In this document: positions 7,637 to 54,301 of the stretch, piece after piece
Numbering within the stretch: the stretch's first letter is position 1
How the letters are laid out: each line of letters starts with the position of its first letter
Notes under the pieces: generated by a model
Seen by the model: only the letters and a program-made list of their open reading frames with translations
Databases searched by the model: none
Told to the model about the DNA's origin: nothing
Source: Lachnospiraceae bacterium
Lineage (GTDB): Bacteria; Bacillota; Clostridia; Lachnospirales; Lachnospiraceae
Direction: 5' to 3'
DNA length: 64,000 nucleotides
Assembly: GCA_017444015.1 (NCBI GenBank)
Contig: JAFSXN010000190.1
Span: 2,618 to 66,617 of the forward strand
Position numbers and translations under genes: made by a program

Positions 7637-10600
7637 ATGATGAAGACAAGAGGGTTCAGGTCGTTTGTAGCGATGCTTGCTCTGGTGTCCATGCTGCTTG
7701 AGAATACGGCAACCGTTTCCGTATTCGCGATGGAGGGCGATGCCTCCGGGCAGCAGGCGCAGGAGACTGTAGTCGAAACGGTTTCGGAGTCCATACCTGA
7801 GGGCGACGAAGCGGTAACAGAGCCAGAGGCAGCTCCTATAGAGGAGCAGACGCAGGAGACTGTTTCCGAGCAGGTACAGGAGGAATCCGTTACGGTAGAA
7901 GAACCTCAGGCGGAGGAGACTTCGGACGGTGGAGAAGCTTTTGAGCCGCAGGTCGAGGTGACCGTGGATAATCCGGAGGAATATAATAAGGAAGCTTCTC
8001 CGGAAGAGACCGTGAACGAGGACATACCTGAGACCCTGTCGATCCTGGACGGAAACCGGATCGAGGCAAGCGGTTACCAGGATCTATATATAGCGGTAAA
8101 TACAGATCAGATGAACGACAGGGATTCTTTCCGTATCAGGATCGACGGTCTGAACAGCGAGGCGGTCTATGACGACAAGCTGAACGGATCCCTTTCCAAG
8201 TCCGATGCGAGTATTTATAAGCTGGAGAGGCTGGATAAGGCTTCTCTTACGATTTCCGCGGCAGAGCTTTCGGAAGGAATGACGGTTGAATATCTGCTGC
8301 GTGACGATAACTATCCTCAGATCAATCTGATCTCCGCACCCGAACCCGAAGCGGAAAAGATCCTGAAGGTATCTGAAGATGGGAAATCTCTCGAAGGCTC
8401 CGGATATGATGATCTCTCCGTTACCGTTAATACTACGGAGCTGAAGAGCAATATTCATTTCAGTCTTGTTTTGGGAACAACTGCGGGTGTATCCTGCAAC
8501 GGCGATCCTGTTGACGGCGCGATCGAAGGACTGTCAAAGAACGCCGGTACGATCAATCTCTCTGATTTAGACGCTCAATCCTTTGTTTTATACATCGTTG
8601 GTGAAAATTCCAACACAATAGCTGCTGATTATTCGATCGTTTCCGAGGAAAACGGGGCGGTCCGCGTCAAGGTCTATGATTCCGGGGAGGAGCAGACCGT
8701 AAAGCGGGTTTATGAATATGAGGATGAGGACGTTAAAGTAACGGCGACCATCGAGAAGGCGGAAGCCGTACCGGATGACGCGTATTTCTCTGTGACGAAG
8801 ATCGAACCGGACTCTGAGGAATACAACTTTAATTCTTATATGGATGCGCTGAATGACAATGCGCAGGATGGTACCAGCTATCATTCCGGCAATACGCTTC
8901 TTTATGATATCGCATTTTACACAGATGAGGACAAGACCGAAGAGATCGAGCCGGAGGAGGGTTCGGTCAGCGTTGCTATTCAGTTTAAGAAGGATCAGCT
9001 GAATAGCGAGATCGGTGTTGAAAAAGAAGATGATATCGAGATCACTCACTTAAAAGAAAATGAACAGACAATAGAAGCGGAGACTCTGGAGTCTACGGTT
9101 TCTCCTGAAACGGGAGCGCTGGAGTTTGCAACGGAGAGCTTTTCTGTTGTTGCAGTGACAAATAGCAAAGGGCTTGAATCGTACAAGTTTTCTTATACAG
9201 CTACTGATTGGGCGAATGGAACGCATCCTTATGCTGTCGAAATGACCATCAGTACAAGCGATCTGAATGATAAGCTGAAGGATATGAGCGGGAAGAAAGC
9301 CCCTGATCTTCTCTACAGGGATGCAAAGCTCTATTATGGGGAAGTAAATAACAGTAAAGAGATAGATGGATATATCCAAAAGTTTACGAACTGGCAGAAT
9401 GTTGAAGGATATGCTGAGTTTGTAAAAGCGAACTTCACCGGCCTTCCGTCGATCAATTCAGGAATGAACTGGTATGATTATATTAAGGGTGTATATAGCT
9501 ATGGGCTTTCGTATAACGGCGGAAATGATGGGATTGATATCAGTGAGTGCGAGATCGACACGAAGATCACATTTAATGACGACTATTTATCCTCTACTCT
9601 GGGAATAACCAGTGAAGATGATCTTGCGGTTGTCATTGCTACTCCTAAAACAGGGAAAAAGGCCAAGGATGAGCCTAAAAAAGATAATATCTATGATTAT
9701 GAAAATATTTCTACAGCCCAGGATTTGCAAGTTGATTTGACCTCTGGGGCAAATAGTATTTCATTTCATTCGACAGGTGGATGTGAATTACTCCTGATGA
9801 AGATTGAAGGGGCTGGGGCAGGAACCAATGGAACAGGACCATATGTACCTAAGGTAAATTCGAGATACTATACACACACAGAGATTATGACCGGGATCGG
9901 AAATACTGCGGTCACAGATGGGGACTTAGGGAACGCTGAGGATTATGGTATCGTTGCCAATGAGTTCAGGTTTGGCGACCATATGGATTCCAATGTAGCT
10001 ACTGGAAAGATCATCCTGGATCACATTGCGTTTGATCACGATACGTATACAAATAACACAGGTCAGAGCATTCTCGCGTCAGTTGTGGAAGGGGATTCTG
10101 ACAGGTGGTATTCTGACAAACATCATAATTCTCCGATAACAATATTTACAACGGATGCTGTAAAGAAAAAATATGTTGATGATACGGTGGATACCGATTT
10201 GCGCTCCAGAGTAAACGATGGCAGGATAGTACTTGATACCAGGTATACAGAGAATCAATTGCAGACTTATGTTACCAAAATGGTTAACGGAACATTGTCT
10301 GAAACGTTGTCAGAGATTACACAAAATACGAATCGTTTTATAGATATCACAGGAGGAAAGAGTTCGGCTGGGGGTTATGTTATTGATTTAACAAACTGTG
10401 AGGCTGGAACATATATTATTAATTTTGCTGAAGGTGAATATGAAAAATATTTTATCGCTGAAGGGTCTGATCGAGGAGATCAACCGCTTAAAATCGCGTT
10501 AAAAACTAACCAGAACATAGTGTTCAATATTCCGGATGATAAGGTTGATCTGGTACAGTTGCAGGCCTGTATTCGAGATAAGGAGGAAGATCCGTATCAC

Positions 10601-13600
10601 TATCTTTTGTCTAATGATGGGGAAGGCGATGAAAGGACGACTGCGGTTATCGAGAGGATCATATGGAATTGCTATAATGCTACTGGCGTAGATATATTAA
10701 AGCCTACCTTTGGCACGATCCTGGCACCAAACGCCGAGGTTATCATTGATGATGTTAGCTCGGGCTGGGTTGTGGCTGATAAAGTGCATAACAACGGTCA
10801 CGAATGGCATTTCTTCTCGAACAAGATTGGTAAGAGTCCTATTGTGAATGTAAATAGTGTTTCTTTCCCGTTTGCTGTACATAAGTCCTTTGTTACAGCC
10901 GGGACCTGGCCGGCAGGAGAAACCTTCAGCTTCAAACTCGAAGCGGTAACGAATGGCGCTCCTATGCCGACAGCGGTTACTACGGTAGAGGGAGTTGAGA
11001 ATACGGTTATCCGGGATACAGCCGGTCCGGTTTCTGCCGACAGTCCGAGCGCGGAGTTTTCGGATATTTCCTTCTATCCTACGGCAGACGGTACCGGGCA
11101 GACCTATATCTATAAGATCTCAGAGGAGCCGGGTGGAAACGGGGCAGTAAATTATGATTCCACGGTTTATTATGCGAAGGTTGAAGTAAGTACAACGATC
11201 ACAGAGACAAAGGATGCTTCCGAAAATGTTACCGAGGTCACAAGAACAGCAGGCACTCCGGTTGTTACCTATTATACGGACGAAGCCTGTACCGAGGAGA
11301 CAAAGGCAGCTCCGCAGAGTCTGAACTTTATCAATGATGTATATGATGGTGAGATCGAGTTCAAGGTAACAAAATCTCTGGTTGAGAGTGATAAAACAAC
11401 AGAGGCTGATTGGATCAGGGATTCTTCGTATTCCTTTATATTGGATGGCGAGGGTACTGCGCCTATGCCTGAAAACGATTCGGAAAACGGTGTAGTTGTC
11501 AGTGAATCCGCGGACGAGAGCGGGAATACGAATAAGACGGCGACTGTAACGATTGATCAGAAGGATGCGATAAAATCCTTCGGGAAGATCACGTTCCCGT
11601 TAGTACAGGCGAATTATGTCTATACGATCTCGGAGGGAGAGCTGGACGAAACGCTTGGGAAGATCGTTAAGAAGTCGGAATACAGTTATCGGATCACGGC
11701 AAAGGTCACCCCAACTCCCGGAGAGGGTGAGGCGAACGTTACCTATGAGGTTGAAAAGTTAGACAGTAACGGGACTGTGCTTGAAACAAAAAATGCTCTG
11801 GAGTCTCCTTTTGAGTTTGTCAATGAGAAGCTTCCGTCAGCATCCATAACGTTTAACATTACGAAAACCTTTGACGGCGATGAGTGGTATGACGAAGGCT
11901 TTGCGTTCACGCTGTCAGAGACGGATTCCAACTTCCAGCCGAAGGAAGGCGATCGGTACAATCATCCGGTAGTTATTAAGAATGATGAGAATACGAAGGC
12001 TGATGGACTGTTGACCGCTTCGGATGTGCTGGAGCTGAATTTCACCTCGGAGGATATCGGTGAGCACTACTATATTCTCCGTGAGGTAGGTACTTATACC
12101 AATATTGAAAGGGATCCCAGTGAGTATAAATATAAGGTAAATGTAGCGTTAAATGAGGATGGTACTTTAACGGTTTCCTACTGGGATCTTACGGAGACCG
12201 AGACGCTGTATAATGAGACTCCTTACCCTCCCGAGACGCATTATGATATTGATACCAGCTTTAATAATACCAGGATAGCCAGCCTGATCATCGGGAAAGA
12301 AATATCCTCTACTCTTCACGTTGTTTGTGAAAGAATGGGCGATCAGGTTTCGGTTCCTGAACCCCTTATGGGCTCAGGCCATACTCACAGGAGAGCGTAC
12401 TGCGGAGATCCCAGTCATTGGGTATTCCGTACCGATAAAGATGGAGTTGTTACCCTGTGGGAACTTCACTCCGGAATGACTGGGGGAGAGCTTCAGGCTA
12501 CGCTTTATACCGATGATAAGTACAATGTAAAGATGTCTCAGGATCAGATCAAGGCGATCAAATCCGGTGATATGCTCTATTTTACGACCTATAATGACAA
12601 GTTTCAGCATTTTGGTCATGCTATAGGAATGGATCCAAACAGCGAGATCACTGATAAGGGTCCGTTCAGCTTTGCTGTTAAGGACAGTAACGGGAAATAC
12701 TATGATACAGAGGGCAGACAATATGATGCAGCTCCGGCTCTTTCCATCAATGCCGGGCAGCAGCTGAAGTTTTATAATCTTGAACCGGGAACATATACGG
12801 TGGAAGAGGTTGACGGAAGCAAGAAGTATACGGTCACCGTTAAAGATGAAAACGGACAGGCTGTTGAAGTGACCTCCGGCGAGTCCGTTTCTGTAGAATT
12901 AACAAACGGAGCGACCACGACAAAGGAGCTTACCTTTAACAATGAGGCCAAGTGGTGCGTATTAACGATCGTTAAGGAGCTTGTATCGGACAGCAGTACA
13001 GGACCGTTCTATTTTGTCATTACTTCGGAGAACGGCGAAACGGTTAAAACCGTTGAGATTCCTGATATATCGAAGGATAAGACTGTATTTATCAGTGATC
13101 TTACGCCGGGAGAGTATACGATACAGGAAACGGATGCGGACGGCAATGTTCTGATGCAGGATGTCAGGTATCATATCACGATGACTGCAAGTACCAGTAC
13201 ACAGGCAGGAGCGAAAGAAGACAGTCCGACGACTTATCTTAAGAGTGATTTGAATCGTATTGATGTTTCGTTAGGCGCGGGTACGAAGACTACAGTCACC
13301 GTAAAGAACAAGGCGGCCGGGCTTATCCTCAAAAAGACACTTAACGGAACGGTACCCTCTGATGAAGCCGGACGGACCTTCTACTTTAAGGTCAACAAGG
13401 TCTCAGGCGGCAATATCAGTGATCTGACCGCGGACGAGCTTGGAAATATCAAAGTCGTTTATGAGAAGGATGGAAACAAGGTTTCCGAGGCTGTATCGTC
13501 GATGCCGATTTCTGTTACGGTCGGGGCTGACGGCAAGGGTGAGGTTGAGCTTGCCGGGTTACCCTGGCTGTCAAGCGGGTATTATCGGATAACGGAAACG

Positions 13601-16600
13601 GATCAGAACGGAAAAGAGTTAAGCTTTGGTTATCCGTATACCGTTGCGGTCACAAAATCAGATAAGTATACGGACCTTGATAAAAACGGCGAACTCAAGG
13701 AAGGCACAAGTTCTATTACTTTAACGGACAGATGCTGGATCCAGGAAATCTATCCGGAAAAGACCTTCCAGGTCGAATTTGTCAATACCCCGACCGGGAA
13801 GCTGACGATCAGCAAGAAGCTCGTTCCGGAAACAGCAGGCAGCGGGAAGACGTATTATGCTGTCCTGACCAGGACGCTCAATAACTCAACGTATTACTAT
13901 AATATAAGCAAGAATGACTTCGAGGCGGAGAGACAGGCCTTTTCGATTACTCCGGGTACGGATATTGAGGTAAAAGGTCTGAAAACTGATGCGGTTTATG
14001 CGGTATATGAGTCGGATCAGAACGGTAATGCTCTGGCTCAGGATGAGAAATACCATATCAGCCTTACCGCGGACGGAACAGTAGCTGTAGCGAACGATCT
14101 TACGGCAACGGCGGAATTCAGGAACGGGAATTATATCGGAAGCGTAGAGATAACGAATACGCTTGGTTCGCTTACGCTCAATAAGAAGGTGACGGACAGC
14201 CGGGATGAAAACGCTGGCGGAACCTTTGAATTTACCGTGACCAGGGAGTTTAACGGTACGAAGTATTACTATGCCGCAAACGGAACGGCAAGTACGACCG
14301 AGACGAAGATTTCCGTGACTGCCGGAACACCTGTCACGATTCCGGATCTTCCGTTTGGAACCTATACGGTAACGGAAACCGACAGCAAGATCGCGGATTA
14401 TGTCGTATCGGGAACAGGGACTGTTGAGATAGACGGAAGTACCGCAAAGACGGTCACTGTAGAAAATACAAAGATCTACGGCGAGGTTACCCTTACGAAA
14501 TATGACGGGGAAGAGACGGCAGAAAATCTAAAGGGACTTAGCGGGGTCAAGTTCCAGCTCAAGACCGGAGACGGCGGAACCGGACAGACGACGATCCGGG
14601 TATCCGGAGCAAACGGAAGCTATCAATACGATACTGCCTCTCTGGATGCCACCATGGAAACCGACAGCGATGGAAAGATCGTTGTTTCGGGACTTCCGCT
14701 TGGAACCTACAGCTTTATTGAAACAGGGGCGCTTGACAGCTATGTCCTGGATGATACGGCAAAAACCTTCACGCTTGTCAAGAGCGGGACAAATACTACG
14801 GTATCCTATGCTGTGAAAGTATATAATACGTCCTTTGCAGGCGGCGTGAAATTTAAAAAGATCGACGCTGATAATAAGGAGAACACAGACGCAGGCCTGG
14901 GCGGAGTGAAGTTCGAGCTTTATAAGAAGGTATCGGATGATCCGCTGAAATATGATCCTTATGTAACTGATACGGATATTAAGACAGATGAGACGGCCGG
15001 AACAAACCTTGGCTGGGTATACTACTATGGCCTGCCTAAAGGGGATTATTATCTCAAAGAGGTTGCCGTGAACGGATCAAGTACGAACGGCTATCTGGCG
15101 ACGGATGAGCTGCTGTACTTTACCATAGGAGAAGATGATGATTGTAAGAAGAGCGAAACAGAGAAGTATGTGACTCTGTCCGCTCCTGCTTCGGGAACGA
15201 CCAGCGTGATCACCTTTAAGGATGGTGTCGCGCTTGTTGGCAACAGCAGGATCCCCGGAAGCGTAAATATCGAGAAGCTCGGGCACAGCGAATATGTTTC
15301 GGAGGATGAGCCTCTTCCGGGCGCAGGCTTTGAGCTTTGGGCAAACGTTAAGGAGGACGGCTCAAAGACAAGCAACAGCGGTTATGAAAAGCTGAGAGAG
15401 GGAACAACGGATCCGGATGGAAAGCTGAGCTTTTCGAACCTTCCGTGGGGGAACTATATTCTGAAAGAAACTACGGTTCCGGACGGATATACCGCTATGG
15501 CGGATAAGAGCTTTACCATTGGGATCGGTACAGACGAAAAGCTGACCTGGAGCTATACAGAAGCCGGGGAGGGAGCGATCGTTGATAATAAGATAACGGG
15601 CGATGTTAAATTAGAGAAGAAGGATAAGACGACAAGTGCCGCGATCAATGGCGCGAAGTTTAATCTGTACCGCGGGAAGAAGAGCGATCTGAGTTCCCTG
15701 TCCGCGGATAATCTGGCTAAGCTCAAGAAGGGCGAAGCGATCACGGATACCCGGTTTACGAAGGTGAACGAGTCTGAGCTTGTCGTAACGGAAGGAAAGA
15801 TAGACAGCTCGACCTTAGCCAAGCTCGGGGAGCTGGAATACGGTGATTATTTCTTTGTTGAGTTCGAGGCTCCGAAGGGCTTTACGGTCGAGGAGGATCC
15901 CATCTATGAGGTTGTGATCAACGGTGTAAAGGAGAGCAATAATGTTGACTGCTATCTTACCGTAGAGAATAACGAGAAGAAGGGGCAGATAACGCTTCGC
16001 AAGGTCGATGCGGATAATGATAACGCGGCGATCACGGGTGAGATCTTAGACGGAGCGAAATTCGAGCTTTGGTTCAAACAGAGAGAGTCGCAGAAGACCT
16101 GGCTTGAAAAGCTGGTCGGCGCTATCGCCGGAGCATTCGGAAGCGACGGGTACACCAAAAAGAAGGAGATCGAATACGCTTACGCGAACAACACGCTGAG
16201 TCTGGTCGGCGATGACGCGGATATCATGCTGAATGACGATGGAAGCGTTACGGTCGAGAATCTGGATTGGGGCGATTATTACTTTATCGAAAAGAACGCG
16301 CCGAAGGGTTATATCACTCCGGTTGATGAGGAAGGAAACGATATACGGACCGGGCATTTCCAGATCGGGCTGGACAGTGCAGGGGAGTACGCTGATCCGG
16401 AAGGCTTTGAGATCACAAGGACGATTTCCAATAGAGAAGACACAGGATATGTCCAGTTCTACAAGGTGGATTCGAGAGATCACTCCATAAAGCTTGCGGG
16501 TGCTGAGTTTAACCTGTATTACGCGGAGGATGGGATCAATTATGAACCCTACGATGATACCACGTATACCTCACAGGAGGATCCCAGGATATTGAAGATC

Positions 16601-19600
16601 TTCCGGGCAGATACCACCGGTCTGGTAGAGGTAAAGGATCTTCCCTGGGGATCGTATTACTTCCTTGAGATAACAGCGCCGGACGGCTATGAGCTGGAGG
16701 TCGATGAGGATAATAAGCCGAAAAAGAGGATCGAGTTTACGATCGATGCTCTTCATGCCGGCGCTACGTTACCTTATGTTCTGGATGACGTAGAGAACGA
16801 GAAGGTCTTTGGCGATCTGGAGCTTTATAAGATTGATGGAACAGCGCAGAAAAACGAGAGCGGAGAAACGGTAGTTGCCGCGAAGGGTCTTGAAGGAGCG
16901 AGCTTCTATCTGGCGGAGGTGACCGATCCGATCACGAATACCGAGAAGTACGTAGAGGTCAGCGGCAGCAACGGCAGCTACGAATTCAGCAAGAGTAACG
17001 GAAGCAGGACGGAGATGCAGGCCTCCGGTTCAAGTGACGGAAAATATAAGACTACGGACAATACAGACGTGAATAATAAGCTGACCGTTGCCAACCTTCC
17101 AGCGGGAACCTATCGGCTGTACGAAATGACAGCTCCGAGCGGGTACAAGGTGAACAAGGATCAGTTCGTTCAGTTCACGATCAAGGATAAGGCGACAACG
17201 GAGCGGCTCAAGGAGGGGTATAGCAACCACTATATCTATGAGCGTACATTTGAGAACACGGATGTTCAGGCGAAGGTACGGTTTATAAAGCTCAGCGAGA
17301 ATACGGAGCCCTTAGGCGGAGTGAAGTTCTATCTTTATAAGTATCATTATGCCGCGGATGATGAAGAGGGCGCCGTACTTGAATCCGATCTGGACGCGAA
17401 TCGCAAGATAGTAAAGGAGTTTAAGGGAGAGTACAATTCCGCAACGACAGACAGCGGCTTTGGCGATAAGCGGACCGTAAAGGGAGAGGTTGCCGTCTAT
17501 GGTCTGGGCGAAGGAATGTACTACTTTATCGAAGACGAGACCTCCGCTTCTCAGCTTGGCCACGTAGCCAATCTGACGAAATACAGGTTCAAGGTTACCC
17601 AGAACGATGCCGGAAAATTTGTCGAGCTGGAGAATGCTTCCGCTATTGAGGGGAAGTTTAACGGCCTGAAGGCTGTAAGCAATAATAAGGCGAAGGGTTC
17701 TGTAACGTTTAAAAAGGTAGACGAGAATGGAAACGCTTTAGCCGGTGTTACCTTTAAGCTTTATAAGGTCGGCCAGGATAATGCGATCGGGACCTTTACA
17801 ACCACAAATAATAACAACGTTATTTCAAAGGACGGGCTGGAATGGGGCGACTACTACTTTGAGGAGATCTCGGCACCGGATGAGTATATACTGCTGAAGG
17901 ATCCGATCGAGTTCTCGATCCCTGAAAAATCGACCGGGCTGACGAATGTAAAGCTTGATGTCAATCTTGGAAATATTGCGAATGAGCTTGTGCAGGGCGA
18001 GGCGCAGTTACGTAAGATAGACGGAGAAAACAGCAATAATTCTACGAATAAATTACAGGGCGCGCATTTTGCGCTGTATAATGCCGCGACGGAGCAGATC
18101 GTACAGCACTCGGCGGAGTTCTCCGCAAGCAGCATAGACTATTCGGATCTTGTGACCGACAGCGACGGTTTGATCCGTACGGAGAAGGACCTGGGCTTTG
18201 GCGAGTATTATTTCCTGGAGACGCAGGCACCTGCCGGATATAAGCTGTCTGTGGACGCGAATGGCGATCCGGATAAGCGGATCTACTTTACGATCGATCG
18301 GGATCATACTACGGCAGAACAGGTTGCCGCTACCTTCAGAGATCATAAGCTCGGCGAGGATGATGATGTTCCTGAGACCGGGAATAATATCATTGTAAAT
18401 GAGCGTCAGACGGGCAGATTCAAGCTCTATAAATATGAAATGATCGGCGAAAAAAAGGTTGGTATTCCGAATGTAACCTTTAAATTACAGAAGAGATCGA
18501 CCGGTATCGTCAATAGCTGGCATGATGTGACAGGCGGGGAGAAGCAAACTTCGTATGACGCTGATACGCCTGCAAATAATGGTTATATTGAATTTACTGA
18601 TCTTGCGTGGGGCGATTACCGGATCGTAGAAACCGTACCGGATGGCTATAAGCTGAAGGACGGTGAAGACGGGAAAGTTGAGTTTACGATCGACGCGATG
18701 CATCTGAATACCAGCGAAGCCGCGATGAGCGAAGCTCAGGCTGAGATCGAGAATGAGCGCGAGCATGGAAAGATCAGGTTAATAAAGGTAGAAAAGAACA
18801 GCACCGGAAGAGACGGAGAGCTGGGAGCGACCTTTGAACTCTGGAGATATGTAGACGGCGTAAATGATGTGAAGATCGGCACCTATGAGATTCCCTCGAC
18901 CGGCACCAGAAGAGGTGAGCTTGAGATCGAGGATGAAAGACTTATCTGGGGTGAAAAGTATTACTTCGTTGAGACTGAGAGCCCGGCAGGCTATGCCGGA
19001 CTGGACAGATCTACAAATACCAGTACCTGGGTCGATGATGAAAATACTAAGACGGAGAAGGCAAATCTTGACGGCCGTACGGATCTGATCGAGCTGCAGC
19101 CTGCTTCCGCGAATGATAATACTTATCAGATCGTACGGATCGAGAACCGTAAGCTGACGAAGCAGGACGTGGAGCTTACAAAGAAGGCGGATGAGACCGC
19201 GGGTACCAAACTGAACGGGACCCTGTTAAGCGGCGCTGTCTTTAACCTTTATCGGGTAGAGAAGGACGCGCTGGGACAGGAAACCTCCAGAGAGCTGATC
19301 TATGCGGTACAGAACAGCGATGGGATCTATACCTACGCGGAGCAGCCGACAAACGGAAGCACTGCTTCTCTTGTGGTCGGTCAGTCGGGAAATCAGCTTG
19401 GAAAGCTGATGGTCAAAGATCTGACCGAGGGCAGCTATGTATTTAAGGAAATAACGGCACCTGCAGGTTATAAGATCAAGACCTCGGAGACATGCTTTGA
19501 GATCGCTTATTACGCAGTGAACGAAAAGAATCCGGACACGAAGGATGATGTTATTGTATACAATTCAAAGATCAGCGCCGGCGTGACCTTTACGAAGTAC

Positions 19601-29568: not shown

Positions 29569-29575
29569 TGAAAGG

Positions 29576-30252: not shown

Positions 30253-30258
30253 ACAGGC

Positions 30259-31928: not shown

Positions 31929-31934
31929 AAAAAT

Positions 31935-33933: not shown

Positions 33934-34069
33934 GTCTTTATATATAGAGAATTTCTATATTTGCGCGGCTTTTCGGATCTTAGAACAAATTTGATAAGTC
34001 GTTATGTATACAAAGTTAAATGGAACAAAGAGAATTTTCATAAAAAATGAAAAGGAGCAGAGAGAGATT

Positions 34070-43000: not shown

Positions 43001-46000
43001 TCGGCGGATAACGCGACGCAGTATCCGAACGATTCCGTGACCTATACGATCGGGGAGAATAACCAGCTGATCGTTGACAACGTAGAGTGGGGCACCTATT
43101 ACTTTGAAGAGATAAAGCCTGCGACGGGCTACAGACTTCCTTCAGACAGAGTAAACCGCCTGACTCAAACGATCGTTATAGGCGCGGATAATGCCGTGGA
43201 TTCCATCGGAAGAAACGATACGGCAAATACGATCGTCTTCGGAAACGATAAGGTCGAGGGAACGATCCGGCTTCAGAAGGTAGATGAGAACAATGAAAAC
43301 CTTGCCGGAGCAACCTTCTATATCAATGTTAAGACAGATCGGGGAGAGAGAAATGTCAAGCTTACCGGGTCAAACGGTGTATACAGCTATGACGGGCTCC
43401 ACGATGGCCTGTTTGACAGAAATTCAAAGGATATCGCTGATACAGACGGAGACGGGCTCTTAGTTGTAAATAATCTGCCTTACGGAACCTATGAGGTTTA
43501 CGAGGCTTCCGCTCCCGATGGCTATAATCTGGTAGAAACGCCGAAGGAATTTACGATCTCCGAGGACGGACAGGGGACCGGGGAGGACGCAGAGCCTGAG
43601 CTGTTCGTTAACAGCCCTGTCCAGGCGAAGGTCAGCTTCTATAAGATCGGAGACGGGGAAGACGGCCAGAAGAAGGGACTTGCCGGCGCGATCTTCCATC
43701 TGTATAAGAGCGAGGAGAACGAGGCAGGAACGACAAGCTGGATCAGCATCGGAACAAAGACCTCGGAGAGCGACGGACTCGTAGAGTTCGGCGGTCTTGC
43801 GGTCGGAGATTACTATGTCGTAGAGGATAAGGCTCCCGAAGGATATACGATCACGATGGACGGTGACGAGCCGAAGAAATATACCTTTACGGTCGGAAAT
43901 AACGATGACGGAGCAACGAAGCAGATCTCGCCCGCGGTAGCTTTTGGCGACGGAAAGATCGGTGTCAATAACGCACAGGCAAAAGGTACCGTAAAGCTGT
44001 TCAAGTCAGGCAGCAACGCGCCGCTGACCGGTCTGAACGGAGCGAAATACGCTCTGTATCAGGAGGGAACCGATACGCAGATCTTTGCTGAGCTTGAGAC
44101 CGGATATTCCTATACGAAGGGCGAGACTACAGGGACGGCAGGCGAGGCCGGCTATCTCACGGTTTCGGGGCTTGACTGGGGTACCTATTATTTCATTGAG
44201 ACATCCGCGCCGGAGGGCTATAAAGCGGATACGAAGACAAAATATACCTTTAAGGTCGATTCATCCAATACAGGGACGCGAGTTCTGTATCCCGGAACGG
44301 GAGAGGAGCAGACTGAGGGGAAGATCATTACAACGGATACGGGAGGGAATGATCTGAAGGTCGTCAATGAACAGATCCTCGGACAGGCGAAGCTCACGAA
44401 GAAGAACAGCGTTACGAAGGCTGTGATCGAGGGAGCTACCTTCCGACTTTACTATGATACGGAGGATTCCCAGGCTGCGCCTCAGCTGGTGGCCGGATAT
44501 GAAAATACGTCCTTTGTAACGGACAATAAGGGTGAGATCAAGACTTCAAAGGATCTGCCGGTCGGAAAATACTACTTTGCGGAGACGAGTCCGATGACCG
44601 GTTATATCGCTTCGGTTACAAAGTATGCCTTTGAGGTAAATGAGAGCAACTATATAAACGTTATTCCCGCGTCGGACAAGACCGGAACCGAAGAGGGAGT
44701 TGCCCTGAATCAGCCGATTCTCGGAAAAGTGAAGCTCTTCAAGTATGAGACGGTGGACGGAGAAGAGGTTGCGATCACCGGCAAGGCGAAATTCCGGCTC
44801 TACAAAGAGAGCAGGATCCTCTGGTTTAATTCCAGCCAGAAGTTGGATATCTATGAGACCACGGATGGCTATATCACGGTGGAGGATCTGGAATGGGGCA
44901 CCTATTACTTTGTAGAAGAAGAGGCTCCGAAAGGCTATGTAGAGAACAAGGACGCAAGGTATATCTTTACCATCGACGGCGATCGGACGGATTATACGAC
45001 CGCGTCGACTATGCTGAAGGTAGAGAATGAGCGGCAGAAGGGCTCTTTAAAGCTGAAAAAGACGGATGAAGAGACAGGCAGCGCATTAAAGGGCGCGGAA
45101 TTTAACCTTTATAAAGGCGTCTATGGCAGCGGAACGCCTGTAGCCGGAGCGCAGGGGCTGGTTACGGACAGCAAGGGCGAGATCACAGTCACCGGCCTTG
45201 ACTGGGGTCAGTATTACTTCGTGGAAACGCAGGCGCCGACCGGATATACGCTGAAAAATGACAGCTACGTGGACAGCTATACCACGGAGGAAGCCGGTCA
45301 GACGGTATCGCGCAAGCTGATTATTGACGCGAACAATGTTGAGGCAAGCGCAAAGGCTCCGTTAACTGCTGCTCTTACGAACGGGCAGATCTACGGAAAC
45401 GTAAGGCTGACCAAGTATGATGACAAGACTCCGGCCGGAACGCTTGGCGGGGCTCGCTTTGAACTATATACGACAGCGGATGCGCGGGTATATGTGAGCG
45501 GAGAGAACGGAGCATATCAGTACAGTAAGGACGAGACGAGTGTTGTTCTTGAAACGCCGTCGACTTCGGATAATACGAACGGTATCTTAACGATCACAGG
45601 GCTGCCGTACGGAAACTATTACTTTAAGGAAATCAAGGCTCCGGAGGGTTATACGGCAACCTCCGTCCGTTCCTCCTTCAGTATCGAGGAGAATAAGGAC
45701 GGCTTTGTCGACGTGACCTGTATGAACGGCGAAATCAAGGGCGCGGTTGAATTTACGAAGCTTTCGGATGACGAAACGCCGATTGAGGACGCGAAGTTTA
45801 TCCTTTATAAGAAAGCAACGAAAAACAACGGACTGGCGCCTGCCGTGATCGGAGAGTATCATTCCGATTCTGCAGGAAAGGTTTCGGCAGCGGGTCTTAC
45901 TGTGGGTGAATATTACTTCACAGAGCAGAGCACGCCGCATGATGCATGGGAGCTGAGTACGGAAGCGCTGAGCTTTGAAATAACAGACAGCGATAACGGA

Positions 46001-49000
46001 AAGGTAATCTATCTGGGAAGCGGAGATGATCATCGTGTCGTAAATACACGAAAGCAAGGCTCCGTCAGACTGTTAAAGACCTATCGTGACGACGATGAGA
46101 CCGGGGTTCTCGAGGGAGCCGGCTTCAGGCTGTACCGTATGGCAGGATCGGAGCCTGCCTCCGGAGATGAACTGGTTCTGATCAACAGCCAGGAAAGCGC
46201 CGTTACCGATGAAAAGGGCGAGATCAATGTTACTGGACTGCCTTGGGGCGACTATTACTTCGTAGAGATCTCCGCTCCTGATGGCTATGTATTTGATCCG
46301 GTTGCGGCGGAGACGACGTACTACCGTTTCCGGGTGGATGAGACGACAGCCGCTGCAATGCAGACGGTTTCGGTTGAAAACGAGAGACAGACCGGAAGCC
46401 TTACGATCTCGAAGCTGGATTCTACGGATCACACGAAGGGCCTTGATGGTGTAGCCTTTAACCTCTATAAGATAATAAAGGACAGTGACGGGAAGGAAGA
46501 ACGTACGTTAAAGGCTACGTTAGCTACGTCCTCAGGCGGACAGCTTTCCTACAGCGGACTGCCCTGGGGAGATTACGTTCTGGTAGAGACCGGAACGATA
46601 AACGGCTATGTTCTGGATACGGCATCCGCGGAGCATCCGTTTACGATCGGTAAGAAGAACGACAGGCTCGTTCTGGAATATACCGAAACGATCACCAATC
46701 GTCCGGTTCAGGGCTATGTTGAGCTGGCGAAGGTGGATTCTGAAAACAACAATATCGTCCTTGGCGGCGTTGCTTTCGATCTCTATTCCGGGATCGCGGG
46801 GAGCGGAACGAAGGTCGGCGAATATATGACCGATGCTGCCGGAAAGCTGTTCCAGACTGTTAAAAACGGCGACGGGACAGAGAAGACAGAGACGAAGATC
46901 GGACCTTTGAACAAAGGAAATTACTATTTCCTTGAAAACGCGGACCGTTCTACGCTGAAGGGCTATCAGTTCAGTGATCAGGCGATCTCGTTCGCGATTA
47001 CTGAGGATGGTAAGACGATCTCCTTTACGGGAAATACGAATTCGATCAAGAATACGAAGAAGACCGGCAAGGTACGGATCAGAAAGATCGACAGCGAGAC
47101 GAAGGACGGGCTGGCGGGAGCGGAGTTTACGCTTTACGCAAGGGAGCCGAAGTCCCTGGGTGAGAGGCTGGCATCCTTACTGACGGATGAATTTAAGAGA
47201 CAGACCTATACGACAAAGAGCGATGGTGTGATCGAGATCGAAGGCCTGGATTGGGGAAAATATTTCCTGGCAGAGACCAAGGCGGCTCCGGGGTATGAGC
47301 TGCTTGCGGACAGTGACGGGAAGAGCGTTACCTATGACTTTGAGATCACAGAGGCGAATGCCGGATCGACGATCGTTCTGAATGATATCACGAATACGAA
47401 GCTGAAGGGCTCCGTACAGTTGACAAAGACGGATGAAGAGACGAATGCGCCGGTAGCCGGAGCGAAGTTTAAGCTCTATAAGATGACGGGAAGCGAGCCT
47501 GTTCTTTCCGGAACGAACGCCGATACAGCCGTTTCTGTTGACGGTGATTCCGAGTGGACGACAAACGACAAGGGCGTTATCCTTGTACCCGGACTTGACT
47601 GGGGCAGCTACTATTTCGTTGAGACAGCGCCTGCCAGGGGGTATGAGGAATTTGAAGAAAACAGCGTCGTTTCCGCGGTTATGACGATCGACGCTTCAAA
47701 TTACAACACCGGCTCTAAGGCTATGAATACGCAGACGGTAGCTCTTACGAATAAGAAGGGCTATGGCTATATCTCGCTGCAGAAGATCTTTGTGAACCCG
47801 GATAAGAACGGGTCGACCGGAGTATACTGGAGCGTTGCCTGCGACGTGATGGATAACGCGAAATGGGCAGGTTCGGATGTCGGTGTCTGGGGCGCGGATG
47901 AGATCCGCAATACCGAAAAGAATAAGAACCGTGAAGGCCATCAGAAGATCTACTGCGGGACCGAAGAGAACCAGCTGATCTATATGGATGACAACGGTGT
48001 ACCGACCGGTATGCTTCATGATAAGAGGGGTTCTACCAGTGAGCGTTACGCCTACGGTGATATCAACACCAAGCTGTATACCGATGAAACGTATCAAACG
48101 GAAAGAGATTTCTCTACGTTAAAATCCGGTGAGTATATCTATTGGACGACCTGGAACGGCGGCCAGAAATGGTATCATCACGGAACGATCGAACAGACGC
48201 TTCATCTGACGGATGAACAGGTGGAAAGCCTGTATTATCCTCCCGATGATTCCGGCTGGGATCTGAGCGGAGTGACCTACCGTCTGATCAATGATGATAC
48301 GAGCAAGATCGTCGGTGAATATGTTACCAATTCGGACGGAGTTCTGACAAACGGCGAGGGCGAACCGGTGATCGGACCGCTTGCGTACGGGACCTATCAT
48401 TTTGAAGAGGTTGCTTTGTCCGACAGAGCCAAGGCAGCAGGCTATCAGTTAAGCAGCCAGCTGGCGAGCTTTGTCATCAGTAAGGAGAGTACGTTAGAAC
48501 ACGCCATATCGAATCCGCTTCCGTATGTCAATCACGTCATGGATGTGAAGGGCGGAGCGACCTTCCAGAAGGTTGACGCGGACAATGAAAATACGATCGT
48601 AAAGGGAATTTCCTTCAAGGTCTACCAGGACGGCGCTACGGATCCGACAACGACTGTTGTTTCGGATGAGAACGGTACCGTAAAGGTAGAGAATCTTCCG
48701 ATGGGTACCTATTACTTCGAGGAGGATGGAGATACCGCGAGGAACGCGGGCTATGTACCCGATACGACGAAGTACTACTTCCGGATCACCCAGTATGACA
48801 ACGGCAAGACCCTGTCTGTACATAAGGACAGCGTTTCCGGAGATCTTACGGGTACGGTAACGAATGAAAAGCAGAAGGGAAGTATTTCTCTTGCCAAGCT
48901 TGGGCATGATGATAAGAAGCTTCCTCTGGCAAGGACAGTCTCTGACGGCGGAGCGCAGTTTGAGCTGTGGAGCAGTCTCAGTGACACCGAGCCTTACTAT

Positions 49001-52000
49001 ACCGCCGACAAGCTGATGAGCGGAGGCTCTGATAACAAGGGAACGATAGAAAACAACGGGATGACGATCACCGTTTCGGGTCTGCCGTGGGCGACATATT
49101 ACTTCAGGGAAACCGCAGCGCCGACCGGTTATGTGCTTCCGGCTGCCGGAAACAGAGATACCAACAGCGTTACGATCTATGCAGGAAACGCCTATGCTTC
49201 CGTTTCGGAGCCGTTATCCTGTACAAAGAGTGATTTGGCGCTGAAGGTCAAGCTCTCCAAGCTCGATGAGAATAACAATGAGCTGATCGGCGCGACCTTA
49301 GAGCTGTATAAGGCGGATGCAGACGGCAAGCGGACGGGAGCCGCCATCGACTCCTGGACGAGCGGAGGATCGCCAAGGACCTTTACCGCAGCTGTCGGAA
49401 ATGAAGAGGGACTTGCGGCCGGACAGGGCTACGTACTGCATGAGGCGCAGGCACCCGCAGGCTATACGCTTTCGGATGATATCTGGTTCCGAGTAGCTTC
49501 TGACGGGACAGTGACAGCCAAATATGTATCGACCGGAACACAGGCAGGCATGATCGGTGAGGGAATCGGTACGACGATCACAATGACAGATACGCCGATC
49601 GAGCTTTCGATCTCCAAGAAAGCATGGGAGAGCGGGAACATGCCGCCGTCATCGATGGAGAATCTGTCTGGAGCAATGCTTCAGATCAAAGAAAAAGCGT
49701 CCTCCAGAGTCGTGGAATCCTGGACAAGCAACGGCACGAACCATAAGGTAGCCGCAAGTCTTTCGGTCGGAACGGAGTATGTTCTCGAGGAAACCTCCGC
49801 GCCGACAGGATATATTAAGATTTCGCCGATCACCTTTACGATAGACGGAAAGGGAGATATCAGGGCGCAGGCGGAGAACGGTACCGATCTTTCGCCGGAT
49901 AACAACAATCATATATTATATGCTGTTGACAGACCGATCTTTATTCAGATCGCAAAGACCAGACTGACCGGCTCGGAAACGGATTATGTATCGGGAGCGA
50001 AGCTGGCTGTCTATGAAGTATTAAGTGACGGGACGCTTTCGGCGCAGCCGGTGGTTCCGGAGTTTACGACGAAAGGCGTTTTAGAGACCATCGATTCCTC
50101 GAAGCTGAAGGTGGGCAGCGCTTACCGTCTGGTAGAGCTTTCCGCTCCGGATGAGTATCTGAAGGCGGAGCCGGTGACCTTTGTAGTGAAGGATTACGAT
50201 CCGACAATACAGACTACGGACGGGCGTCAGCCTCAGATCATAAAGATGAAGGATGAGCTGTTAAAGGTTTATGTTCAAAAGCAGGGTCTCGGAGAACAGC
50301 TGGCCGGAGCCTCCCTCCAGCTCTTAGACAGCTCCGGTGAAGTAGTGGCAGAGTGGAAGACTGAGAATAGGCCCGCGGCGATCGTATCCTCTACGGAGGT
50401 CGCAAACGAACAGGAGCTGAACCTTTCGGATTATCAGGTCGTTTCGACGAAGGAAGGAAAGACCTTAAAGGCAGGTGTATCCTACCGGCTCGTTGAACTG
50501 TCTGACAAAACGCATCCTGTACCTGCCGGATACAATGCGGCAAATGCTGTAAACTTTACGTTACAGAACAATACAACGGTTGTTAAGACGGTAACGATGA
50601 CAGACCAGCCGCTTGCTGTTGCCTTTGGAAAGAAGAGTACGAGCGGATATCTTGCCGGCGCGACGATGCAGCTTTTGACAGAGAAGAATAAGGAAGATAC
50701 GGCAATTGCGCAGTGGCGGACCACAGATAAGCCTGTGATCGTTACTCTGGGTACCATTGCCGAGGATTCCAAGTATGAGAAGCTGGAGCTTTCAAAGGGT
50801 GTTCTGGAACTTGGAAAGACCTATTATCTCCATGAGAAGACCGACGGAGTTCCAAGCGGATATTACCACGCGGATGATATTCCGGTTACGATTGACAATA
50901 CGGATATTTTGAGTACGTACGTCCGTGAGGTCGATATGGTCGATGTTGAGCAGGGTAAGACCAGCGTTCCTGTAAGCAAGACCTGGATCATTCCGAGAGA
51001 CGCAAACGGCAACCCGGCAAGTGACTTTACGGCAAGGACCGCGGTAATAGAGCTGTACAGAGATTCGACGACAAAGGGTAAGTCGGAGGATCTGGTCGCA
51101 ACATATAATATGACCTGGCCGGAAACGAACTATACCTTCGCGCAGTATCAGGTGAACAATGAGTGGAGGGATCTGGAGAAGAACAGCCCTGCGGGATATG
51201 AGTACACCTATAAGGTTGTCGAAAAAGAAACCGAAGCGATCAAGGCTGACTTCAATATTATTTATGATTCAACACCGGGCGTGATCATTAACCGGACGCT
51301 GCCGAAGGTGACTGATCTGACGGTTACAAAGACCTGGCAGTGGTATAAGGACAGCGATACGGCACCGCAGGATGTGACCGTATATCTGCTTCAGAACGGC
51401 ACAAGGATGGCCTCTCATACCTTTGCCTTTGACAAAAAGGATATCACTGTTGGAAATACCTTTGTTTCACAGCCGTTTACCTTTGAGAGTCTGCCGAAAT
51501 ACAATACGGATACCGGACTGGAATATGTCTATACGGTTGAGGAAGAGGGGACCGGCTTTACTTCACAGATCAGTTATGACAGGACCGAGAGGACCGCGTC
51601 GATCTTAAATGTGCCGGATGAGACACCGTTCTATATAAGCGGTAAAAAGACCTGGATCGATCCTACGGACAAGGAAGTAACTCATCCGCAGATCGTACTG
51701 GCGCTCTACAGAGACGGCGAGCCGTATCTCTATACGGAGCTCGATGAGAAGGATGAATTTACCTTCGGTCCACTCTATCAGTATAATCTGGGACACGGCG
51801 GCGGAGCCGATAACCTTGAAACCGCTGACGGACATCCGTATACCTATGAAGTTAAGGAGATCGGAGCAGCAGGCTATGATGTTACGATCACCTACGGAGA
51901 AAACAGCGGTAACTATGATCCTGCTCAGATTACGGGCGGAAATCTTGCCGTGAACGTAGAAAACAGGATCAAAAATGAAACGATCAACATTGCCGGAGTG

Positions 52001-54301
52001 AAATACTGGAGAGACAGAGGCGACGCCGGCAGGCGGCCGGACAGCGTTACCTTTGAGCTGTTCCGGGACGATGTGAGGTTAGAGGATCATACCGCGACGA
52101 TACAGACACCGAACATTGAGTTCAGGTTTGACGGGCTTACAAAGTATAAGTATGAAGGCGGCAAGGCGATACCTTATGTCTATACGGTAAAGGAACAGGC
52201 GCTGGATGGCTATGTTACTTATCCGGATGCAGGGATCGTAGTTAACAATGATTATCTGACAGGTCTCAATACCTACTCGGGAGTCAACTTTACGAATACC
52301 CCGACGGCGGTCAATCTGTCCAAGGTAGACCAGTCTGTGATCGTGGATGCCGAGACGGAGAGAAAGGCTGAGCTGACCGGAGCGGTAATGGAGCTCTACG
52401 CGTTGTCAGAGGGCGAAGGAAGCAGCGTAAAGGGTGAGGTACTGCAACGTTGGGTATCCGGCCTGACACCACACTATGTCGAAGGCCTGCCGTATGGCTG
52501 GTATCGTCTGGTCGAAGCGGATTCTCCTGAGAAATACTGGGATTCAGAACCGATCGACTTTGAGATCACCGCGAATGATATCCTGACTGAGAGTAAGGAT
52601 GTTCAGTTAGTTACCATGGAGGATGAACCGATCATCGGAGAGGTCAGCCTCCAGAAGATGGATGAAAATAAAACGGATCGTCTTGGCGGCGCGGAGTTTG
52701 AGCTGTTTACAGAAGCGGGTGCTCCGGTCAATGTGAAGGAAGCGGTTTCCGCAAACGGCGTTTCCAACAGCGGTCAGTACGAGTATTCCGCGCAGAGTAC
52801 CGCGGTAACGACGACAACGCTGAAGACGACGGCTCTGGGAGATCTGAATGTAACCGGCCTGCCGTACGGAACCTATTACTTTAAGGAGTCCAAGGCACCG
52901 AAGGGTTATGAGCTGAATAACAACAATGAGGTCTTCTCGGTTTCCATCGCCACTGCTTCGAGAGCAGCTGTTGATAAGGAAAGCAAGGATTATAAGAAGA
53001 GTTCCGTCACCGTATACGATAAGAAGAAGACCGGCGCGGTAAGGCTCTTAAAGTCCGATGAGGAAGGAAAAGAGCTTGCGGGAGCGACCTTTGAGCTGTA
53101 TTCACCGGTTGCAAGGACCGGAGTCCAGGCGGTTCTCGGATCGGCGTATCAGGATCCCTGGTATCGTTACGGAACGTATACGACCAATGAGCTGGGTGAG
53201 ATCTATGAGGACGGTCTGCCCTGGGGTCAGTACTACTTTATCGAAACAGAAGCGCCGGATGGTTATCTGATCCTTCCGGATATTGATGAGGACCTGAGCG
53301 CGAGAGTATTTACCTTTGAGGTAGACGCGAACTGGGTAGAAGAAACGGCGGCACCGATCGTTAACGACGAGGCACCGATCGTAAATATCAAAGACAGGAC
53401 CGGCGGCGGAACAACGCCGACACCTGGGCCTGGAGGCGAGGGCGGAACAACACCGACACCCGGACCTGGAGGAGAGGGCGGAACAACACCGACACCTGGA
53501 CCTGGAGGCGAGGGCGGAACAACACCGACACCCGGACCTGGAGGAGAAGGCGGAACAACGCCGACACCGGGACCTGGAGGCGAGGGCGGAACGACGCCGA
53601 CACCTGGGCCTGGAGGCGAGGGCGGAACGACACCGACACCTGGGCCTGGAGGAGAAGGCGGAACAACACCGACACCCGGACCCGGAGGAGAGGGTGGAAT
53701 TACACCTACGCCTGCACCTACTTCCGAGCCGGGCGGAGGAATAACGCCTACCCCGACTATAGTGCCTACGACGGTTATAACGGTAACGCCGACACCTACC
53801 ATTTTGCCGGTTATAACAACAACGCCTGCGCCGACACGGGCCAGGGTAACTGAGGGACCTACTCCGACCGTTACGCCGGAGCCTACCGAGGAGCCCACGC
53901 CTGTTCCGGGAGTGACCGATGAGCCGATACCGACGGAGGTTGTAGTAGTTGTAGTTACGGAGACACCGACGTATACGCCGACTCCTACTGCTACACCGAC
54001 AGCTGCCGCTACTCCGACTGTTGCTCCGACGCTTCGGCCTACCGTAACCCCTACGGCTACCGTTACTCCGATTCCTACAGCGGCAGTGCTGGGGGCGAGA
54101 AGAACGCAGCCCGGCGGAGTCGTCGCGGGAGTTCTGGGAGTAAGGAGCGCGCCTACGCAGGGTGTGCTCGGAGCAAGAGTAGGACCTGTGACGGGCGACG
54201 CAGCAAATATCGCTCTCTGGCTGATCATTCTTTCGGCCAGCATCGGAGCGGTGATCCTGATCCTTGTTCAGTCTTCGAAGAAAAAGAAGGCAGGAAAATA
54301 A
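34070..54301 (+). CDS. Giant cell-surface adhesin (6743 aa), paralog of 7637..27799
   Basis: Uninterrupted ORF. ATGATGAAG at 34070 mirrors the start of gene 1, and AGGAG lies upstream. The signal peptide [29 protein letters not shown] is alignable with that of gene 1. It has the same domain order, about 24 SpaA-like repeats, and the C-terminus VGPVTGD, a TM helix, then KKKKAGK. The track ORF begins at an upstream in-frame ATG, 34004. Confidence 0.97.
36245..36630 (+). other. Two Listeria-Bacteroides repeat (Flg_new-type) domains, present only in giant protein 2
   Basis: [61 protein letters not shown] and [59 protein letters not shown]. Both carry the F-x-GW...F-x-TP[IV]...[IL]-x-L-x-AK[WF] signature. 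Confidence 0.65.
36685..37735 (+). other. Choice-of-anchor-A-like segment of giant protein 2
   Basis: [27 protein letters not shown] ... [10 protein letters not shown]...[35 protein letters not shown]. Alignable with 9921-10825. Confidence 0.4.
40441..49235 (+). repeat. Array of ~24 tandem SpaA/prealbumin-like domains in giant protein 2
   Basis: Examples: [28 protein letters not shown]...[15 protein letters not shown] and [29 protein letters not shown]...[19 protein letters not shown]. Confidence 0.75.
50955..52230 (+). other. Cna-B-type domains in giant protein 2
   Basis: [18 protein letters not shown]...[66 protein letters not shown] and [30 protein letters not shown]. Confidence 0.6.
53408..53695 (+). 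repeat. In-frame tandem repeat, 36-nt unit x 8, within the PT/G-rich stalk at 53399-54079
   Basis: GGAACAACGCCGACACCTGGGCCTGGAGGCGAGGGC and near-identical copies that differ only at synonymous positions. They encode [12 protein letters not shown] eight times. Confidence 0.95.
54179..54298 (+). other. C-terminal cell-wall sorting signal of giant protein 2
   Basis: [40 protein letters not shown]. Confidence 0.65.

Follow-up and report, generated by a model that had tools for sequence, protein, structure and literature searches.

The DNA analysed here, called the window below, is a stretch of 64,000 nucleotides (nt) from contig JAFSXN010000190.1 of the Lachnospiraceae bacterium assembly GCA_017444015.1, whose host probably inhabits the rumen or gut. 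Two giant genes, designated A and B, lie on the same strand of the window, separated by a gap of 6,270 nt, and together they fill 63.1% of its length (Table 1). A preliminary description of the locus had reported two same-strand open reading frames (ORFs) of about 20 kb filling 63% of the window, and the coordinates, lengths (20,163 nt for A and 20,232 nt for B) and spacing were re-derived without change. The ORF listing places B at 34004..54301 (6765 amino acids [aa]). The ATG at 34070, already favoured in the preliminary description, is the likelier start because the resulting N-terminus matches that of A and is preceded by a similar purine-rich ribosome-binding site. A and B are probably ancient tandem paralogs encoding monomeric, cell-wall-anchored fibrillar adhesins of a Gram-positive gut or rumen Lachnospiraceae bacterium.

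Table 1. Features of the A/B locus, with positions counted from the first nucleotide of the window
Feature	Position	Strand	Basis
Gene A, predicted giant fibrillar adhesin, 6720 aa, ~740 kDa	7637..27799	+	Intact ORF; Pfam SpaA, FctA x3, Cna_B
A, three Ig-like beta-sandwich domains, aa 128-511	8018..9169	+	AlphaFold2 (AF2), predicted local distance difference test (pLDDT) 80-93
A, predicted beta-helix head, ice-binding-protein-like (DUF3494-type) fold, aa ~745-1065	9869..10831	+	AF2 and Foldseek
A, FctA/Spy0128-type pilin isopeptide domains, aa ~1081-1660, 3 Pfam stretches	10877..12616	+	PF12892 E 1e-16; TIGR03786 below threshold
A, array of 30 diverged SpaA/CnaB-type domains, aa 1668-5627	12638..24517	+	Iterated hidden Markov model (HMM), PF17802
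A, Cna_B x4, then three SpaA-like domains (A31-A33), aa 5628-6506	24518..27154	+	PF05738, 4 stretches; iterated HMM
A, Pro/Thr-rich linker, presumably wall-spanning	27155..27583	+	24/48-nt tandem repeats at 27205-27418
A, sorting signal: VLGAR, VLGVR, VLGAR (27584, 27629, 27662), GPTTGD (27680-27697), helix, KRKKSGR	27584..27799	+	Sequence
AAA_35+PD-(D/E)XK ATPase gene, in lower-GC insert 27979..31704	27979-29568	+	Pfam
ATPase_2 gene, in lower-GC insert 27979..31704	30238-31704	+	Pfam
LacI-type sugar-binding domain + GGDEF gene, diguanylate-cyclase-like, directly upstream of B	31842..33863	+	Pfam Peripla_BP_3, GGDEF
Gene B, predicted giant fibrillar adhesin, 6743 aa	34070..54301	+	Intact ORF; Pfam SpaA, Flg_new x2, FctA, Cna_B
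B, three Ig-like domains, aa ~111-494	34400..35551	+	Alignment to A aa 128-511
B, two Flg_new (Listeria-Bacteroides repeat) domains, aa 727-860, not in A	36248..36649	+	PF09479 E 6e-26
B, counterpart of the A head, aa ~865-1222	36662..37735	+	Collinear BLAST, A 764-1989 vs B 872-2101
B, 31 SpaA-like domains, Cna_B x4, then 3 SpaA-like domains, aa 1760-6421	39347..53332	+	Pfam, iterated HMM
B, Gly/Pro/Thr linker and sorting signal: VLGAR, VLGVR, VLGAR (54086, 54131, 54164), GPVTGD (54182-54199), helix, KKKKAGK	53333..54301	+	36-nt repeat x8.8 at 53405-53719

In a global alignment the two proteins are ~30% identical overall, with identity of 57-70% across residues 300-500 of A, ~70% in the last ~110 residues and 20-35% in the core. 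The ends, which had been aligned by eye in the preliminary description, hold up on counting: 59 of 80 residues are identical between aa 327-406 of A (nt 8615-8854) and aa 310-389 of B (nt 34997-35236), as are 64 of the C-terminal 75 (85%). Synonymous sites differ, as had been noted. The same codon is used at 24 of the 58 identical residues other than Met and Trp in the 80-residue stretch, and the shared VVVVVV run (aa 6604-6609 in A, 6624-6629 in B) is encoded by different codons in the two genes, exactly those quoted earlier. Synonymous divergence (dS, NG86) is saturated in all regions, with values of 1.1-3 where it could be computed; the signal peptide and the tail give 1.1-1.2, other regions 1.8 or more or no computable value, and the nonsynonymous divergence (dN) at the conserved ends is 0.12-0.29. 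At the DNA level A and B are alignable only over the final 252 nt (75% identity). The remaining DNA similarity is a recurring ~57-nt stretch coding for G.YYF.E..AP.GY, with 60-70% identity, and nucleotide self-comparison found no long near-identical repeats between the two genes. Gene conversion in recent times is ruled out for the conserved ends, where dS is at least 1.1. Assembly duplication of one gene is likewise ruled out, with copies only ~30% identical, saturated dS and the locus present in two other assemblies.

The age of the pair can be placed relative to a speciation event. In UBA3814, another member of the Lachnospiraceae (locus L002 of the related set described below), two giant adhesin genes lie head-to-tail ~190 bp apart, an A-like gene followed by a B-like gene. 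The downstream gene is collinear with B and 38.7% identical to it over 2948 aa, as against ~27% for B versus A, and the C-terminal 3,000 aa of the upstream gene score 946 bits with A versus 452 bits with B. Because each gene of the window matches its UBA3814 counterpart better, the A/B split predates the divergence from UBA3814; A and B are ancient tandem paralogs whose duplication is older than that speciation. Tandem giant adhesin genes also occur at loci L016 and L015/L019. The earlier conclusion of an old duplication kept under selection is thus borne out by the saturated dS, the low dN at the ends, the two intact frames and the pair in UBA3814. Contig k141_1510975 of assembly ERZ27256811 shows 100% identity with the window across 17 kb, and its B is intact (called as 6765 aa). 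Scaffold_1316 of ERZ28653709 (72,976 bp) matches at 99.985% identity in the compared 19.5 kb, which cover B and the downstream genes (3 mismatches), and carries an intact A (called as 6719 aa).

Both proteins begin with a signal peptide, as read from the sequence, with a basic n-region, a hydrophobic core and an xFA end. An AF2 model of residues 121-700 of A is confident over the three Ig-like domains (aa 128-511, pLDDT 80-93), for which Foldseek returned generic Ig, pilin or Cna-B-like matches only. The third Ig-like domain carries the signature YEYED..VKVTATL..NTLLYDIAF...EPE.GSV, the mark of a sparsely represented family found in 14 proteins of a 5.8-billion-protein database and at 107 loci in GTDB species representatives, the best of which is 52% identical. 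Eighty of these 107 loci form the set of relatives used here, and neighbouring genes were counted in the 67 whose upstream sequence extends to 3 kb or more. The 80 loci belong to rumen and gut Gram-positives, mostly Lachnospiraceae, Butyrivibrio and Blautia, with a minority from Erysipelotrichaceae, Coriobacteriaceae/Atopobiaceae and Anaerovoracaceae. In the 18 loci that were checked, the related ORFs are all still open at the end of the fetched DNA, at 1,044 to >4,000 aa, and 15 of them exceed 3,400 aa.

The region that follows the Ig-like domains in A is modelled as a beta-helix (AF2 model of residues 700-1075, predicted TM-score 0.76), and all of its top 10 Foldseek matches in the PDB are DUF3494-type ice-binding proteins, with probabilities of 0.90-1.0 and target-normalised TM-scores (TMt) of 0.30-0.51. 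Its C-terminal motif, VIWN.YNA...G.ILAP.A.V, gives BLASTP matches over 50-62 aa (E 4e-5 and 5e-5) to P0003 and P0011, two relatives bearing PF20597 (choice-of-anchor A / pAdhesive_15). The head of A is therefore probably a divergent domain related to choice-of-anchor A, and the models are suggestive of a putative ligand-binding module. It follows the third Ig-like module, the position that the PF20597 domain has in P0003 and P0011. However, neither family HMM matches A or B (TIGR04215 and PF20597 gave no score on either), so that the head would be at best a divergent subfamily. Sequence searches of the PDB with the N-terminal 1700-1770 aa found nothing for A and only the internalin B repeat for B. 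The counterpart in B shares the head motifs YGVTAN/YGIVAN and VVWNLYNAT...GWVVAD..EWH, although conservation between A and B across this region is weak (15-38% identity per 100-column block). Since the heads and stalks have diverged and B has the additional Flg_new domains, the comparison suggests that A and B may bind different ligands.

The greater part of each protein is a stalk of beta-sandwich domains. Pfam matched SpaA (PF17802, E 1e-103 to 1e-226), Cna_B and FctA in both. When each protein was searched as two chunks with a 100-aa overlap, there were 12+17 SpaA stretches in A and 12+19 in B. FctA gives three stretches in A and one in B, and Cna_B four near each C-terminus. With an HMM iterated on A and B themselves, the number of SpaA-like domains comes to 33 for A and 34 for B, so that the ~22 and ~24 estimated in the preliminary description were an undercount, while its total of ~45 domains per protein was about right. 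Of the families it had expected, SpaA, Cna_B and FctA were recovered, Flg_new was found in B only, and TIGR04215 did not match. Within a protein the domains are 28-30% identical in the median and 45% at most (28% and 40% for A), and the stalks are therefore not recent repeat expansions. An all-against-all comparison pairs domains one-to-one at the ends of the stalks only (A01-B01, A02-B02, A04-B05, A23-B24, A24-B25, A26-B27, A27-B28, A30-B31, A32-B33 and A33-B34, the last pair being 53% identical), and the ~20 central domains have no clear one-to-one matches. Of the domain order described earlier as the same in both proteins, domain-by-domain collinearity can thus be traced at the two stalk ends but not clearly in the centre. 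Inserted modules do differ, as had been stated: the two Flg_new domains of B and its ~180-aa insert at aa 4544-4725 have no counterpart in A. The array of A contains a ~320-aa gap at aa 1852-2177.

Domain boundaries follow a regular pattern, '[VI].N....G.V.L.K.D', and 'G.YYF.E..AP.GY' recurs within the domains. The boundary pattern puts the Asn of a last strand just ahead of the Lys in the first strand of the next domain, and a Glu lies in Y.F.E. By pattern matching, 27 of the 33 domains of A and 23 of the 34 of B carry a Lys/Glu/Asn triad, and in those closest to the C-terminus SpyTag-like strands (IIMKD, VTMTD) contain an Asp. Intramolecular isopeptide bonds in the stalk domains are plausible on this basis.

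Both C-termini are tripartite, with an xPxTGD motif, a hydrophobic helix and a basic tail. The canonical LPXTG motif is absent from A and B, the motif there being GP[TV]TG, and it is preceded by a repeat region that reads AAVLGARR...GVLGVRS...GVLGARVGP[TV]. The best-scoring anchor model is TIGR03063 (srtB_target), just under its threshold (16.7-17.5 bits for A and 13.3 bits for B, cutoff 18.15); TIGR01167 (LPXTG_anchor) scores 10.6 bits with a cutoff of 15.9. Sorting signals found in the 80 related loci comprise 18 LPxTGG and 15 xPxTG[D/Q/S]. Two to three VLGxR(R) motifs stand ahead of 11 of the 15 xPxTG[D/Q/S] signals and ahead of none of the 18 LPxTGG signals. Loci with this arrangement include L002, L015, L016, L022, L062, L064, L065 and L078, and the upstream giant genes of L002, L015 and L016 end in a VLGxR...GPATGD...KKKK signal. 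A database search with the 73-aa tail matched only two Lachnospiraceae fragments, the query being too short, on that database's E-value scale, to gauge the frequency of this class of signal. A literature search found no paper on the VLGARR motif. Taken along the whole length of A and B, the ends for export and anchoring have been kept while the heads and stalks diverged.

Among the related loci with sufficient upstream sequence, a class B sortase gene (TIGR03064, E 1e-39 to 1e-47) lies upstream on the same strand in 24 of 67, and a GGDEF or GGDEF-EAL gene in 14. Eleven have both (L003, L006, L007, L009, L010, L019, L024, L038, L043, L066, L068), usually in the order srtB, cyclic di-GMP (c-di-GMP) gene, adhesin. 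At least four architectures are seen among the c-di-GMP proteins: GGDEF-EAL, REC-PAS-EAL-GGDEF, a TraX-type seven-transmembrane (7TM) protein with GGDEF and, in the window, a sugar-binding periplasmic-binding-protein domain with GGDEF. A literature search found no paper describing a cassette of sortase, GGDEF and adhesin genes. The GGDEF protein of the window is cytoplasmic, with no membrane helices, and its active-site motif is GGDEY, not GGDEF or GGEEF, which leaves its enzymatic activity uncertain. Its gene has a terminator of its own at 33911-33933, between it and B. No c-di-GMP riboswitch or other known RNA was detected in the window at the Rfam gathering threshold (0 matches), and scanning both leaders by E-value brought up nothing relevant. 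Families recurring among the upstream ORFs of the relatives are srtB, GGDEF-EAL, pgk-tpi and an amino-acid ABC transporter, together with S26 signal peptidase in pilus loci; no candidate for a conserved release protease was found among these clustered families, nor did Pfam reveal a protease gene in the window. A Peptidase_M13 (neprilysin-like) gene is present in ERZ28653709 (L085, 19259-20573), ~9 kb upstream of the start of A and just outside the window. The Butyrivibrio-type loci L021, L022, L046, L055, L069, L074 and L077 share the third Ig-like module yet resemble classical pilus loci, with LPxTGG proteins and an upstream gene for an S26 signal peptidase (SipW-like).

The two ATPase genes between A and B lie in a stretch (27979-31704) with a GC content of 0.40-0.44 versus ~0.50 in the flanks. 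Since UBA3814 lacks it, its A-like and B-like genes being ~190 bp apart, this stretch is probably an insertion outside the adhesin system. The ATPase_2 (PF01637) genes at 986-2431 and 30238-31704 are paralogs, 37% identical, one upstream of each adhesin gene. A segmental duplication including both was considered and rejected, as unrelated genes lie between the first of them and A, and their position beside A and B is probably a coincidence. The product of a gene at 3703-4932 is a secreted protein of 409 aa in which two Big_2 domains are accompanied by an E/R-rich segment of high charge (EREEREQREREEREKREREE...), with no recognisable anchor. The 438-nt region upstream of A contains, at 7397-7480, a 21-nt imperfect direct repeat in two copies (TCGTAAAATAATCAACTTAAT). 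After the repeat comes a hairpin on the plus strand that resembles a terminator and is accompanied by a T-run (CCCCGTTTCCGGGG TTTTTTT), although the plus strand carries no gene upstream of it. A similar junction from T-run to GTCTT follows the terminator of the GGDEF gene upstream of B (33911-33945). The region before A may represent the remnant of an upstream gene since lost, or else a leader with regulatory function.

In the reading favoured here, A and B would be exported by Sec via the N-terminal signal peptide, and the helix and basic tail at the C-terminus would retain them in the membrane. Cleavage at xPxTG, which is GPTTG in A and GPVTG in B, would then fall to a sortase of class B type whose gene lies outside the window, and the same enzyme would link the protein covalently to peptidoglycan. 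The Pro/Thr linker would span the wall, and ~40 beta-sandwich domains of the CnaB, SpaA and FctA types, most with Lys/Glu/Asn(Asp), would form a stiff stalk of ~150-200 nm. Displayed on this stalk would be a head of three Ig-like domains and the ice-binding-protein-like beta-helix, joined in B by the two Flg_new domains.

Several observations weigh against such an assignment. No sortase gene or remnant was found in the 64-kb window (Pfam; tblastn best E 0.4), and none among the genes in the examined parts of the 73-kb ERZ28653709 scaffold beyond the window. The sorting signal is under threshold for all anchor models, and the isopeptide residues were assigned purely by pattern. The fold match of the head comes with modest TM-scores of 0.30-0.51 and a shallow 10-sequence alignment, and searches of residues 1-1700 of A and 1-1770 of B gave no HMM match to the head (NCBIfam E <=0.01, Pfam E <=1). 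Finally, the ERZ28653709 scaffold carries a TAC-to-TAA stop in B at aa 5811 (window nt 51502), adjoined by an AAT-to-AAA change (N-to-K) at aa 5812 (window nt 51505), which divides B into gene calls of 5832 and 896 aa. The stop may be a real strain variant that removes the anchor or a base-call error that makes an A-run; if it is real, B may be dispensable. The preliminary description had named broken genes as grounds for abandoning its view. This applies in part, to the B of ERZ28653709, whereas A as well as the B of the window and of ERZ27256811 are intact.

This stop is what would favour regarding one or both ORFs as decaying or unexpressed relics, or as an assembly-duplicated gene, which we consider hardly credible. 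Without selection, a frame of ~6,700 codons would practically never stay open at ~50% GC, dN is far under dS at the conserved ends, A is intact in the very assembly that carries the stop, and the B of ERZ27256811 is identical and intact. Misassembly could not make one copy from the other at ~30% identity and with no long DNA repeats, and the earlier judgement that the pair is neither an artefact nor the product of recent gene conversion stands. It is also very improbable that A and B are pilus subunits polymerised head-to-tail by a sortase. FctA/Spy0128-type pilin domains are present in both, Foldseek returned matches to RrgB and to pilins of group B and group A Streptococcus (GBS, GAS), and some class-B-family sortases polymerise pilins in S. 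pyogenes. Nevertheless, a subunit of 6.7 thousand residues would be ~10x the size of any known pilin, and Pfam found no class C sortase, minor pilin or SipA/LepA-type chaperone gene in the window. The canonical pilus loci of the relatives (Butyrivibrio L021, L022, L069, L074 and L077) use separate LPxTGG proteins and a signal-peptidase-like gene instead.

A further proposal extends the anchored-adhesin reading instead of replacing it. A and B would be sortase substrates whose display is switched by c-di-GMP, with the VLGxR(R) motifs as release-protease sites, a scheme we regard as attractive but unlikely. It would make A and B the Lachnospiraceae equivalents of CD2831/CD3246 and ZmpI (PPEP-1) in C. 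difficile, or, in terms of function, of the LapA/LapG system, which is equally speculative. In its favour are the GGDEF and GGDEF-EAL genes of four architectures directly upstream of the relatives' adhesin genes, 11 of the 14 with srtB as well, the GGDEF gene that adjoins B in the window, and the restriction of VLGxR motifs to xPxTG signals; in C. difficile, too, the ZmpI sites form a cluster immediately ahead of the sorting motif (PMC4591827). However, no c-di-GMP riboswitch lies upstream of A or B (Rfam), a terminator separates the GGDEF gene from B, the active-site motif is GGDEY, and no conserved protease recurs among the upstream gene families. PPEP-1-type Pro-Pro sites are absent save for one PPAP in A. 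The neighbour counts are raw ones, uncorrected for how often such genes occur across the genomes, and they include several loci that are orthologs of one another. Moreover, VLGxR could equally serve sortase recognition or be a wall-interaction segment.

S. aureus Cna, Enterococcus Ace and Streptococcus FbaB are examples of fibrillar adhesins. Those with CnaB/SpaA stalks were defined by Monzon and Bateman, so that stalk adhesins of giant size with sortase anchoring form an established class (PMC8286594, PMC9210967). A and B are new, unusually large and unusually complete members of it from a little-studied clade. Like other fibrillar adhesins, they have a signal peptide, an N-terminal head, a tandem prealbumin-like CnaB/SpaA stalk with Lys-Glu-Asn/Asp triads and a C-terminal sortase-type signal, and they share the property of being among the longest proteins of a proteome. 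They differ in being roughly 5-10x longer (6.7 thousand residues, ~40 stalk domains), in having diverged stalk domains (<=45% identity) instead of near-identical repeats, and in the motif GPxTGD after VLGxR repeats, not LPXTG. Their predicted head is an ice-binding-protein-like beta-helix with Ig-like domains, not a Cna-A or DEv-IgG fold; no adhesive-domain HMM matches A or B, and the predicted beta-helix and a weak similarity to PF20597 proteins are no more than suggestive of an adhesive domain.

The closest experimentally characterised analogue of A and B appears to be C. difficile CD2831/CD3246. About one-seventh the size of A or B, CD2831 combines a CnaB stalk with a class-B-type motif. 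This motif is PPKTG, by which SrtB anchors CD2831 to meso-diaminopimelate (mDAP); 6-7 ZmpI sites are clustered directly upstream of PPKTG/SPKTG, and c-di-GMP controls both adhesin and protease (PMC4591827). Common to A/B and the C. difficile proteins are an xPxTG motif, in A and B a putative class B sortase target, the CnaB stalk, short repeated motifs just upstream of the sorting motif, and a genomic or regulatory association with c-di-GMP. In contrast to the C. difficile system, the association of A/B runs through adjacent cyclase or phosphodiesterase genes, with no riboswitch detected, no M34 protease gene is adjacent, and the repeats are VLGxR(R), not Pro-Pro sites. Other giant Gram-positive surface fibres include SasG/Aap, SasG having near-identical G5-E repeats, and S. 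aureus Ebh, of ~10 thousand residues, has FIVAR-GA helical repeats and a membrane anchor. These are single-polypeptide fibres >100 nm long made of many tandem domains, as A and B would be by their predicted length, whereas the repeats of A and B are diverged CnaB/SpaA beta-sandwiches.

The non-LPXTG signal with its VLGxR motifs and the srtB/c-di-GMP neighbourhood are the only features that might mark a new variant of the class. It is conceivable, albeit doubtful, that they belong to an undescribed display module of rumen and gut Lachnospiraceae and their neighbours. Such a module would consist of a dedicated class B sortase, a c-di-GMP cyclase or phosphodiesterase and giant adhesins with two or three VLGxR(R) motifs ahead of xPxTGD, VLGxR being a second functional element. 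The window, with its two paralogs, would be a version from which the linked sortase gene has disappeared. With similar reserve, VLGxR in such a module might be taken as release-protease sites or as an extended determinant of sortase or wall recognition. If this were true, c-di-GMP would govern both attachment and detachment of ~0.2-micrometre fibres.

How the dominant fibre-degrading Firmicutes of the gut and rumen attach to plant particles, mucus and partner microbes is poorly understood, and their attachment proteins are mostly fragmented in short-read metagenome-assembled genomes. The locus described here offers two complete adhesins of ~740 kDa that share their export and anchoring ends. 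With their diverged heads and stalks, A and B lend themselves to comparative work on the evolution of giant stalks in which repeats are not homogenised. Orthogonal ligation parts of the SpyTag type might be obtained from the many diverged CnaB domains that carry Lys-Asn or Lys-Asp triads. If the non-LPXTG signal with its VLGxR repeats and the recurrent srtB and GGDEF/EAL neighbours are borne out by experiment, the C. difficile paradigm of c-di-GMP-controlled sortase substrates could be widened to a large commensal clade.

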